64,000 nt of DNA from Saccostrea cucullata (GCF_032062105.1 NW_026925603.1:124001-188000); one strand, 5' to 3'; counted from the stretch's first letter, positions 11,434 through 17,304 are shown. Made by a program: numbers and translations. Notes: generated by a model from the letters alone, not told the origin.

Positions 11434-14400
11434 ATGGCTTTGCCATCCATGCCACACTATTGGACAACCAGGAGAAATGTTTATGAGCAGGCAATAGTCA
11501 GAAACAGAAACCATGATGACCACTTACGAGAAAGATGGAGTAACACAGCAAATTACTTTCAAAAATCAAACATAGCGGCCACAAAACAGAGCGCATGGGA
11601 GTCAGAGAAATCTCTCAAGTCCAGGTAAAGGTCTTTGATAGGCCATCTTATCTCAGTCTAGTCAGTCTATGGAAGCATGTGTTGGTTGTTGTATATTACA
11701 ATCAGTTATATATTTTGGGTTTTTATTTCAGCATGGATGCTTATCAGAAAGAAAAAGATTCAGATAAAAAGGCCAAGAAATTAGCCCTACGCAGAGAGAA
11801 GCTAGCTGCCATGCTAAGACAGGAGAGATACAAGTATGAGGTAAGTATTTGTAATTTTCAGAACCTGAACCAGCCACCAGCATGACTGATTCTTAATCAG
11901 CAAAAATAAACATAACATTAAACTTTTCTTTGATTGATCAGTAATGGATACTTGTAGATTTTATTGTTCACAAGTTTATTTTTAAACATCTTCAAGTGTT
12001 AGAAGTCAAAGCATTTTTCTCCGGTCTAGGTTTCTCTCCTATTTCTGTGTGAACAATTTTGTATTTTTTTTTCTAGGCGGAATTAAAGGGATATTCCCAG
12101 GACAATTATGATCGCCTGGAGGACATGAAAGACCGAGTTGACTCCCTAAAGAGTGCTAGAGAGGAAAAAAGGAAAAATGTAAGACGTCTATTTATAAATA
12201 AAGATGAACAATTGAAAATGTTAACTAGTTTTTAATCCTTGAGGATGTACTGCCTCAAGTACAATTATTCAAATTACCTTGTATCGTATGTAAAATGCTG
12301 TATTATTACTGTAAACAGGTTAATACATGTATATGTTAGCTGCAGAACTGTAGTTCTCTGAAAAAATATATATTGATAGACCGGAGAGCTACAGTGCCAC
12401 CCATTGAAAAAAACTGTATATTTATATATTTATAATCACCACACATTTGATTTATGTTGCAACTCCCTATGATTAAGGAAATACACAAATATCTATACTT
12501 TTGTATTGAAAAAAATGAATGTTACTAATAAATTCAACTAATTTTTGTATTTAACAGTTGGCTCAGGAGAAACTATATCAACATTGGAAGCAAAACAATC
12601 CAGATATCAGAAAGGTTGGTTTATGTACCGTACACCTCTTTTAAGTTTAAGCTTTCACTGTTATTTGGATGAAAGATACAAAACATTCTATGTGTTTTTT
12701 ACATAGTCATGCCGTGACTGTATATTATTACATTAAAACAGAAATTTTATATGACGTTTTATATTTTACAGCTCGAGTCAGAACAGTTGAAGGACCACGT
12801 CGTAGACAGATGGGGGTCCCAAGTGGAGGAAGTCAGGGAGGTAAGAACTAACAATGGGGGGAGGGGGGTCTTAAGGAGTAGTCAAATAGTAATCAAATAG
12901 CCATAAGGGAAGAGTGGTCTGAAGTGAAAGTAAGAGAATACAAGTACTGGTACATGTATTCCTTGAAGAAAGGCACAGGGATTACTTATTAAAAAGACAT
13001 ATTAAAGTGGCTCTTTGTCATTGTTTTAAGTAAAAGAGGTCTTGTCACTCAAATATCATGTACAGGGCTTAGAGGTAATGAATTTGTCCTTCCAAGAAAC
13101 AATCTAATTAATAATGCACTTTTGGTTTTAGCTCATGCTGATGACAGGAAATTTTCACTAATAAAATGTTTATCATTTTCTAAAATATTTGCACAAGTTT
13201 CGAATATTTTTCTCTTATTATGCAGAAAGAAGAACAGGAAAGAATTGAGAAAGAAAAGTTTGAAAGAGAGATGGAGAAAGAGAGGATAGCAGCTCTGGAG
13301 TTGGAGAGAGAGAAGGAAGAAGAAAGATTGGAGGAGGAGAGGAAGTGGAAGGACGTACTGAGGGAACAGATGCTGGAGCTCCGTGAGCGGGAAGACGAGG
13401 TCAGAATCTAAATCATAAAAATAACAGACTCTGTTCATGTAGAAAAACCTTCCCAAAGCGTTTTTAAAAAAGTGGGAAACAAAGTTCAAATTTTGAAATA
13501 GTTTCAATTCATAGATATGCTCATTGTTTGGTTAACCTTGTCAGTCGTCCCTTTTAACAGATTGTGTCCTGTTCTACATTAGCAGCTTATAACTGCTTGT
13601 ATTGCTGTTGCCAGTATGTATAATACTGTTGAGTTACTTTAGCCATACTTTTTCTTTTTAATTATAAAGGCCAGTAGACTGAAGAAAGAACAAGATTCTC
13701 TACAGAAAGAACAATGGAGGCTGGAAGAGCTAGAGGAGGAACGTAAAAAGATGGAGGCCGGCCGTCGGCACAGGGAAATGGGGTAAGGTCGTAATTAGGA
13801 TGTCACAGGGAAATGGGGTAAGGTCTTAATTAGAATGTCACTGGGAAATGGGGTAAGGTCTTAATTAGAATGTCACTGGGAAATGAGGTAAGGTCTTAAT
13901 TAGAATGTCACTGGGAAATGGGGTAAGGTCTTAATTAGAATGTCACAGGGAAATGGGGTAAGGTCTTAATTAGAATGTCACAGAGAAATAGGGTAAGGTC
14001 TTAATTAGAATGTCACAGAGAAATTGGGTAAGGTCTTAATAAGAATGTCACAGGGAAATGGGGTAAGGTCTTAATTAGAATGTTACAGAGAAATGGGGTA
14101 AGGTCGTAATTAGAATGTCACAGAGAAATGGGGTAAGGTCTTAATTAGAATGTTACAGAGAAATGGGGTAAGGTCTTAATAAGGATGTCAAAGAGAAATG
14201 GGGTAAGGTCTTAATTAGAATGTCACAGAGAAATGGGGTAAGGTCTTAATTAGAATGTCACAGGGAAATGGGGTAAGGTCTTAATTAGAATGTCACAGGG
14301 AAATGGGGTAAGGTCTTAATTAGAATGTCACAGAGAAATAGGGTAAGGTCTTAATTAGAATGTCACAGAGAAATTGGGTAAGGTCTTAATTAGAATGTCA

Positions 14401-17304
14401 CAGGGAAATGGGGTAAGGTCTTAATTAGAATGTCACAGGGAAATGGGGTAAGGTCTTAATTAGAATGTCACAGAGAAATAGGGTAAGGTCTTAATTAGAA
14501 TGTCACAGAGAAATGGGGTAAGGTCTTAATAAGGATGTCACAGGGAAATGGGGTAAGGTCTTAAAAAGGATGTCACAGGGAAATGGGGTAAGGTCTTAAT
14601 TAGAATGTTACAGAGAAATGGGGTAAGGTCTTAATTAGAATGTTACAGAGAAATGGGGTAAGGTCTTAATTAGAATGTCACAGGGAAATGGGGTAAGGTC
14701 TTAATAAGGATGTCACAGGGAAATGGGGTAAGGTCTTAATTAGAATGTCACAGAGAAATGGGGTAAGGTCTTAATAAGGATGTCACAGGGAAATGGGGTA
14801 AGGTCTTAATTAGAATGTTACAGAGAAATGATGTAAGGTCTTAATAAGGATGTCACTGGGAAATGGGGTAAGGTCTTAATTAGAATGTCACAGAGAAATG
14901 GGGTAAGGTCTTAATGAGGATGTCACTGGGAAATGGGGTAAGGTCTTAATTAGAATTTCACAGAGAAATGGGGTACGGTCTTAATTAGAATGTCACTGGG
15001 AAATGGGGTAAGGTCTTAATTAGAATGTCACTGGGAAATAGGGTAAGGTTGTAATTAGGATGTTTTCATGAAATAAAATGGTGATTTTAATATCAATATT
15101 AAAATAATTTACATCAGTAAGTTGTACATATTTTTATATTAACTATTGACTATCTCTTACAGCCGGATGTTACTGAGACAACATAAAGCACAGATGATGA
15201 GACGATCCAGGCAAATTCAGGAGGAGCTGGTAATAAAAATATGTTTATTAGTTCTAAGCTGCCATACAAAAAATAATATTTTTGTTTGTCATAATGTAAT
15301 TTTTACCACTAAACAAGCAAAGTAGGCATTAATTGTCCTACAGTTGAATTCTTATTTATAACATGTCATTATCTTCATGAACAGAAGAAAACAAAGATTT
15401 TTTTTTTAACCCTTGGCAATTTTATGTTATTTTAGGAACAAGACAAACAGATGTTAGAGGCTCTTATTGAGAGAGAGAAAGAGGAACGAGAAATCCTCAC
15501 CACGCGGAGAGAAAAGGCCCAGGCTGACGCTGCGTGGATGAAGCAGGTGATTAATACTGAATTATATGTAATAAATAAACTGTCTTATAGTTAGCTATAA
15601 TTTCCATTCCTTGTGTTGCAATGTATTATTATAATATTTCTTTTAACCTAGGTAATTGAAGACCAGTTACGAGTAGAGAAGGCCAGGGAAGCTGAACTGG
15701 ACATGTTATACCAGTAAGATTTCTTCAGTTATTTATATGTGGTATAAGACATCCTTGTAGCTTTACAACTCCTTTCAAACACTCTTTACTAAAGAGTCCT
15801 TCTGACAGAGAAAACAGATCATTGAATTAATTTTCTGATTTCAGGGAAGAGGCAGCTAGAATGTGGGAGAAGCGTGATGCAGAATGGGCGCGTGAGAGTA
15901 AAGCCAGGGAGAGACTGATGAGGGAGGTAGGTACTGCTGGCCAAACGATACACGACAATCTTCTGTGTCTGGTTCTTATTCCAAGTTTGTGTATGGTGTT
16001 TAGCCACAGAGAAATGTAGCCCAAATATATTATTTTATATTTTATCTGTAGGTGTTTAAAGACAGACAGCAACAGATAGAAGAGAAGTTAGAAGAAGTGC
16101 AGCGTGAACGGGAGGAATCGCTATACCAGCGGGAGAAACTGATAGAGGAGATGGAGATAGCCAATCAGATGACACAGCGGGATCTGGAGAAAGCCGAGGA
16201 GCAGAAAGAGGCCCTCAAACTGGATCTCAAGGGACAGGTCTGTGGCCCCGTTCTCATAAGAGGGGAATGTTAAATCAAAATGTGGCTTGATTTTATATAA
16301 ACTGCTTAAAACACATTAGCTAGTACATTACTGTCTGTCAATGATTATGTCCAGGTTAGTGGTTCAGTTCTCTAAAGAGGGGAATGTTTGATAGAAAGTG
16401 GCATGTCAGACCTGTTCAAAATCGGAAAGTGACATGATTTTATACTTTTCCGCTTAAAACACATTAGCTAGTAAATTAATGTCTGTCAATGATTATCTCC
16501 CTTGACGACAGATCACGGCCCGACACGAGCAGAAGGAAACGTCACGTCAGAAGTTACAGGAGGAAGAGGAAAGGGATCGGCGGGAGGAACAGGAATACGA
16601 GGATTTCCTCCGACAGGAGACTGAGAGGATGAAAGTCCGAGGCTTCGCGCCCAAGGTATGTCACATGAGAGTTAAGTAGAAACCATTGTAATATGTAACA
16701 TAACGTAAGATTCAGATATGCCTTGTCAGGAACTGGTGTATAAGGAAGAAACCTATATATGAAACATGACCCAAGGTTTTTTACATCAGGGACTGCTCTA
16801 TTTAGTAGAAGCAATTGTGTTCAATCAATATAAGTAAGCCTTAGTCTTCATTACTTTCATGCAGTGATGTAATACTTGGGCACGTGATAAGACTTAATCT
16901 TTTTCAGTCTTAAAAGTAGAACTGTCAAGCAAATAAGTCTTAATTTAAAAATTAAAAGTAAAATCACATATTTTCATGGGGTCAAAATTTCGAGGTTTGA
17001 GGAAAAAATATTGGTTTGTGGGGATTTGATTTTGTGGTTGGAGAATGATAAGTACATGTAGTAATGCATATGAAATTTTACATTTTGTAGTGGTAATAAA
17101 TGTATGGGTCTCTCCGTACCTTGAAAACAACGAAAATTAACCGCCCACGAAAATTAGTGATTTCACAGTATTGATTATTTTAATGAATGGTCTGCAGTTC
17201 TCTTTAACTGTAATAATGTTAAAATTCTCAGGGAGAATCCAGAGATTTCTTACTTTATTTTTGTTCTCTTTCAGAATTTTGGACGGCGGACTGCTTGGAT
17301 GTAA
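11434..17304 (+). CDS. TCHP: Trichoplein keratin filament-binding protein (14 coding exons)
   Basis: Exons 11434-11624, 11732-11840, 12077-12178, 12558-12614, 12772-12840, 13226-13399, 13670-13782, 15163-15229, 15436-15546, 15652-15713, 15845-15926, 16052-16237, 16512-16655, 17275-17304 (TAA). N-terminus [10 protein letters not shown]...[14 protein letters not shown]...KQSAW, E/R-rich coiled coil with [24 protein letters not shown]-terminus FGRRTAWM. Confidence 0.92.
13769..15063 (+). repeat. 35-bp tandem array (~37 copies) of TCHP exon tail plus donor
   Basis: Unit cacagggaaatggg|gtaaggtcttaattagaatgt = last 14 nt of exon 13670-13782 plus 21 nt of intron. Confidence 0.95.
16957..17170. mobile_element. 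Short MITE (same family as 59800-60596)
   Basis: agtaaaatcacatattttcatgggg ... cccacgaaaattagtgatttcacagta form imperfect inverted ends; similar ends occur at 59800 and ~60590. Confidence 0.6.

Follow-up and report, generated by a model that had tools for sequence, protein, structure and literature searches.

A 37-copy minisatellite across the exon 7 donor of the oyster TCHP gene, and tandem arrays at other exon ends

How does an intron come to carry 36 near copies of its own splice donor, and what becomes of a transcript in which the authentic donor is the first of 37? The question is raised by a 64,000-nucleotide stretch of the genome of the oyster Saccostrea cucullata (GCF_032062105.1 NW_026925603.1:124001-188000; hereafter the window, with positions counted from its first letter), in which intron 7 of the trichoplein gene, TCHP, begins inside a 37-copy minisatellite whose first unit lies across the exon 7 donor. 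We favor, at a probability of roughly 0.8, the reading that this array likely goes back to one old tandem seed duplication, that slippage or unequal exchange likely expanded it, and that it is likely spliced out by way of its first donor. On this reading the 36 donors behind the first are most probably neutral passengers. The features on which the argument turns are the following.

11434..17304, plus strand: trichoplein gene (TCHP), with 14 coding exons for 498 aa; TPH domain detected in the orthologue P0068
13670..13782, plus strand: TCHP exon 7, which contributes its last 14 nt to the unit
13769..15063, plus strand: minisatellite, 37 x 35 bp, adding 36 donor-like sites (TRF and donor-site count)
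13769..13803, plus strand: first unit, 14 exonic and 21 intronic nt, with the authentic phase-2 donor (13782/13783) inside
15064..15162, plus strand: unique 3' part of intron 7 including the acceptor, homologous to its counterpart in the 226-nt intron of a second gene copy, on contig C8829
15163..15229, plus strand: TCHP exon 8

Structure and history of the array

The protein encoded by the 14-exon model is identical to Saccostrea echinata trichoplein at 482 of 498 residues. Its exon 7/8 junction, REMG/RMLL, aligns without gaps to the orthologues of S. echinata, Ostrea edulis and Solemya, and REMG is joined to RMLL without insertion in 8/8 aligned oyster TCHP proteins. The identity and the gapless junction together mark 13782/13783 as the true donor, which keeps the exon boundary at 13782, where the original prediction, made from the bare sequence of the window, had placed it. 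The unit opens with 14 nt that code for the HREMG end of exon 7, a stretch conserved among the Saccostrea proteins in the alignment.

Starting from this exon tail, Tandem Repeats Finder (TRF), run on the window, reports a period of 35 at 13769-15063, with 37.0 copies and 92% matches. The 37 donor-like sites extend from 13783 to 15043 with all 36 intervals exactly 35 nt, so that the predicted number of about 37 copies of a 35-bp unit of exon tail and donor is borne out, each unit combining 14 exonic and 21 intronic nt. The prediction that nearly every unit retains G/GTAAGG agrees with the count of 35/37, the two deviants having a T at -1 and GTACGG, respectively; GT itself is kept in 37/37 units. 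Twenty distinct unit sequences are present, free of indels, with a mean of 1.7 differences from the consensus and 7.6% pairwise divergence; we looked for a lag of the end units and found 5 consensus differences in the last unit and 6 in unit 31. An A-variant occurs in 17 of the 37 units, and rare variants of units 6-8 repeat as a block in units 16-18, as slippage or unequal exchange would predict. Intron 7 has 1380 nt in all, of which 99 (15064-15162) form a unique tail ahead of the acceptor, in line with the roughly 100 expected, and 120 nt separate the last donor from the acceptor.

On contig C8829 (L011-L013) the assembly has TCHP and its neighboring gene a second time, in collinear order. 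The two TCHP copies differ at 29 of 138 fourfold-degenerate sites (21%) and at 6 of 496 compared codons, and the C8829 copy may be a strongly diverged haplotype or else a paralogue or segmental duplicate. In the comparison of homologous intron sizes that had been proposed, its intron 7 measures 226 nt with 4 units, against 1380 nt with 37 units in the window copy; two of the four units have decayed donors (GTAAGA, GTAATT), and the intron is otherwise alike. The unit counts of 37 and 4 thus belong to copies 21% apart at fourfold sites, which are perhaps not alleles of one population. The corresponding stretch from the last donor to the acceptor is 120 nt in the window copy and 122 nt in C8829, which fits the proposed ancestral intron of about 120 nt enlarged about tenfold, the growth amounting to 11.5-fold. 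Several other TCHP introns also differ greatly in size between the copies, for example intron 5 (385 vs 5465 nt).

Units 2-4 of C8829 carry the A-variant of the window array. Its presence in both copies suggests that the duplication most likely predates their split, and the persistence of 4 units in a diverged copy points to an old seed duplication, with only the expansion or homogenization being recent; divergence is 7.6% among units and 21% between the gene copies at fourfold sites. Thus, of the earlier proposal that so homogeneous an array is probably young or actively homogenized, recent expansion or homogenization stands, whereas a young origin is contradicted by the unit and A-variant shared with C8829. 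In a DNA contig of a related organism, 83 nt of the 4-unit array are missing, with 8 other letters in between, and this contig would accordingly carry about 2 units. The C8829 exon reads ACGT directly ahead of the unit, and the unit ends in ATGT. A 35-bp duplication across the donor, aided by this possible microhomology of 2-4 nt, could have seeded the array, which would then have grown block-wise by slippage or unequal exchange.

Choice among the 37 donors

Read-through from the first donor yields ATG GGG TAA and hence a stop after residue 272, as translated for donors 2-4, 36 and 37; since the stop sits in unit 1, it follows codon 272 whichever later donor is used. The immediate in-frame TAA that had been pointed out is therefore real, but it loses its special meaning, because all three phase-2 introns of TCHP (3/3) begin with GTAA and such a stop is the generic default rather than a design feature. 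Such a stop lies well ahead of the last junction and would make the transcript a likely target of nonsense-mediated decay. In the scheme that we favor, splicing would pick the most upstream donor, as in human F7, and remove the array with the intron, while leaky transcripts from later donors would be lost by nonsense-mediated decay. Use of the first donor by the 37-unit allele would fit the aligned oyster proteins and also three RNA or RNA-like runs of relatives, whose depth falls to zero in the bin of the short copy's intron 7, where a DNA run has depth; these runs are contigs of relatives placed on the short copy, sharing 6-12% of words, in bins too coarse to separate donor 2. RNA structure offers nothing unusual: the folding energy of four units is -18.7 kcal/mol, and shuffled units give -22.4 +/- 6.7.

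The array is a new oyster example of the published mirage or F7-type minisatellite class. Its units are of minisatellite size and stand head to tail, the end unit lies across a true exon-intron boundary, the splice signal recurs in many copies, and the unit is derived from the host gene and is no dispersed repeat. The lancelet mirages of Adh3 and the globin genes BflGb6 and BflGb9 are described as tandem repeats across either boundary that vary among haplotypes and leave splicing unharmed, and the same paper terms their mechanism of origin unclear (PMC3087553). Those are cephalochordate arrays, whereas the TCHP array, of 37 x 35 bp, is molluscan and comes with a computed figure for local enrichment. 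Alike in design is also the 37-bp variable number tandem repeat (VNTR) in intron 7 of human F7, whose first unit spans the donor and in which the most upstream site wins (PMC1557585). The two share a first monomer across the donor, identical pseudo-donors behind it and a similar unit size; they differ in copy number (5-9 in F7, 37 in TCHP) and in the exonic share of the unit (4 and 14 nt), and upstream-only use is experimental in F7 and inferred in TCHP. The passages of PMC2630376 that we consulted add nothing further on splicing of the F7 VNTR. Other human cases named in PMC1557585 comprise 6-16 (25 pseudo-sites), CBS intron 13 (15-20 repeats) and the LMNB2 and PDGF minisatellites; like TCHP they have reiterated donors in the following intron, with copy numbers reaching the same order, and the pseudo-donors are silent or nearly so in F7, LMNB2 and PDGF. 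The literature searched yielded no paper on mirage-type arrays in oysters and no genome-wide count.

Several observations weigh against a silent, randomly seeded array. The RNA-like evidence comes from the contigs of relatives and not from the 37-unit allele, and it is compatible with use of donor 2. In human 6-16 and CBS, as reported in PMC1557585, two pseudo-sites are used besides the authentic donor. Within TCHP itself, the O. edulis isoforms X1 and X2 (P0073, P0003; alignment columns 56-65) have 10 extra residues where exons 1 and 2 meet, namely the final 8 of exon 1 and two others, which are absent in X3 and X4. These predicted proteins probably reflect an independent, in-frame, 30-nt donor-spanning duplication whose second donor is annotated as used, and X1 and X2 thus apparently demonstrate that such donors can be live. 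Finally, junction-anchored arrays occur at about four times the local chance expectation, which plain random duplication leaves unexplained.

Arrays at other exon ends

The window contains eight junction-spanning arrays (6 donor, 2 acceptor) in four genes. Besides that of TCHP they are as follows.

129..241, plus strand: TRAPPC11, acceptor-spanning array, 38 bp x 3
5122..7862, plus strand: TRAPPC11, donor-spanning 55-bp unit (34 exonic + 21 intronic nt), with two non-array inserts
19996..20273, minus strand: aspartate-dehydrogenase-like gene, donor-spanning, 71-73 bp x about 4
22241..23311, minus strand: same aspartate-dehydrogenase-like gene, donor-spanning 43/28-bp units; 25 donors vs 22 on C8829
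56161..56412, minus strand: TPR gene, donor-spanning 30-bp unit, in frame and stop-free where translated
56476..56816, minus strand: TPR gene, acceptor-spanning 36-bp unit, at the opposite end of the exon with the 30-bp donor array
58602..58810, minus strand: same TPR gene, donor-spanning, 76 bp x 2.8

The ASPDH label derives from a weak Pfam match, and the TPR gene is one that we take, from its translation, to be ANAPC7, the match behind the name being only a generic TPR one. As the 30-bp unit is in frame and free of stops, its later donors could add 10-aa repeats. Two exons have junction-spanning arrays at both ends, one in the window (56161-56816, minus strand) and the other at L107:9430-10000, reaching into L108. 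The inserts in the TRAPPC11 55-bp array (5760-6054 and 6425-6815) are probably small mobile elements. The earlier remark that the TRAPPC11 unit, like that of TCHP, takes 21 intronic nt, perhaps by coincidence, is correct as to the number, and the agreement is compatible with chance (P about 0.15). A 21-nt rule for the intronic part was rejected, since 12 donor-spanning units range from 3 to 50 nt, with the value 21 occurring three times and 22 once (fitted gamma null, P 0.13-0.15). Thirteen arrays had been measured, of which one that only abuts its donor was dropped; for another, the intronic part was changed manually from 14 to 16 nt to make up for a donor placed 2 nt off.

To place these arrays against a background, we used a 1.65-Mb sample of the assembly that takes in the window and for which long contigs were chosen rather than drawn at random. 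Exons were called by a predictor trained on the genes of the window, which recovered 29/35 training donors and made 95 real vs 18 decoy calls at threshold. Outside the window, 6/42 locus-specific arrays start at a predicted donor vs 1.07 expected from local controls, and 3/42 end at an acceptor vs 1.25 expected (p = 0.12), while among dispersed arrays 1/109 start at a donor vs 1.40 expected. Counted from the exons, 9/334 predicted ends outside the window bear an array vs about 2.1 expected from controls in unique DNA, and 7/308 outside the whole window contig vs about 1.8 (p = 0.002). This is the comparison of unit breakpoints with donors that the original prediction had proposed genome-wide; in the sample it yields an approximately fourfold excess at exon ends, clustered in few genes. 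A bias toward donors alone is hinted at by the array-centered test and is not seen in the junction-centered one (5 donors, 4 acceptors), and we have discarded it.

In SCAPER, mapped from an annotated protein, 4/28 donors are spanned and a fifth abutted, and in TRAPPC11 a 47-bp x 77 array lies at another donor, in an upstream intron (L024:5234 to about 8860; C7740:109234-112860; homologue-confirmed), giving this gene at least three such arrays. The SCAPER and TRAPPC11 exons are confirmed by homologous proteins; among the predicted exons more widely, 6/15 have any Pfam match, mostly weak, and protein 8 matched only unrelated families. A 26-bp donor-spanning array in an RWD-domain gene (C7740:103668-104696) has look-alikes 12 and 22 kb off (near 81494-82306 and 91764-92666), which are perhaps duplicated gene fragments.

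These figures give some standing to the possibility that a junction-biased mutational process, such as transcription- or splicing-coupled damage followed by microhomology repair, seeds the duplications and that the TCHP array is one of its products. Such a process would be compatible with the neutral fate proposed above and would alter only the cause. It draws on the eight arrays in four genes of a single window, on the donor excess confined to locus-specific arrays, on the excess at exon ends both outside the window and outside its contig, and on SCAPER and the two exons with arrays at both ends. However, all 7 cases outside the window contig are on one contig and in few genes and are thus not independent; C14000, with 47 predicted exons, has no array, and a further 200 kb has 0/32 ends vs 0.27 expected, which is uninformative. 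The predictor's training on window genes, its decoy calls and the choice of long contigs also count against it, and an equal excess would arise if arrays survived longer when anchored in an exon that cannot be deleted. Nor is there a link to methylated, CpG-poor genes, a candidate that we rejected, exon CpG depletion being alike in 20-kb bins with and without arrays (0.54 vs 0.53, p = 0.77). We hold junction-biased seeding to be a tentative explanation that is less likely than not.

Two-copy tandem duplications in the window, at 9379-9466 and 42907-42950, lie at, or close to, the coding ends of TRAPPC11 and a single-exon MFS-like gene. Dispersed satellite arrays of 147 bp and 166 bp (787-1833 and 51698-53341 of the window) have many copies elsewhere in the sample and are not junction-anchored. 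Two genes of the analysis are presumably LRRC49 and RWDD4, names taken from their translations with only generic LRR and RWD matches behind them, and a long intronless reading frame at about 61800-63870 of the window resembles, and may belong to, a Mab-21/cGAS-like oyster family.

Other accounts of the array, and its meaning

Could the extra donors be put to use? A functional rheostat, in which the number of units sets how many TCHP transcripts end up as stop-containing, destroyed forms and so tunes protein level, would accord with the intact GT in all units, with the stop after codon 272 from every later donor, and with the pseudo-sites used in human 6-16 and CBS. We consider it improbable. 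We looked for sparing of donor positions and found 1/6 variable vs 14/35 unit positions overall (P = 0.21), so that donor conservation is at chance level and selection preserving decoy donors is unsupported; any phase-2 intron beginning with GTAA would give such a stop; related copies have 37, 4 and about 2 units, and donors have decayed in the one with 4; and the F7 experiments favor the upstream site. Still less credit is due to inflation of the copy number by assembly error. It would fit a fragmented assembly, in 23,869 contigs, and a second copy with no more than 4 units; against this stand 20 distinct units in ordered, recurring blocks without indels and array flanks collinear with the second copy. 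Insertion of a dispersed satellite or transposon with a chance likeness to the exon end, for which we found no supporting point, can be dismissed within the sensitivity of a pattern search, in which a 29-nt pattern with <=2 mismatches, run over the 1.17-Gb assembly, matched 34 times in the array and twice in the homologous C8829 intron, and hence 36/36 times inside two TCHP introns (reversed control pattern, 0 matches), while the start of the unit encodes the conserved HREMG; the independent satellite that the original prediction had named as its alternative is thus not seen.

Taken singly, the TCHP array is ordinary, and its value is that of a marker for the wider, gene-clustered, approximately fourfold excess at exon ends. 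One might speculate, with considerable doubt, that oyster genomes have a junction-targeted duplication process by which a few percent of exon ends, concentrated in certain conserved genes, have come to carry decoy splice sites. The result would be a large natural panel in which the frame of the unit separates upstream scanning from use followed by decay, in that out-of-frame arrays, such as that of TCHP, would look silent, whereas in-frame ones, such as the O. edulis TCHP exon 1 copy and the 30-bp array of the window, would add short protein repeats. If about 3% of oyster exon ends do carry arrays, oyster annotations combined with RNA data could test why junctions are affected and how one of dozens of identical donors is chosen.

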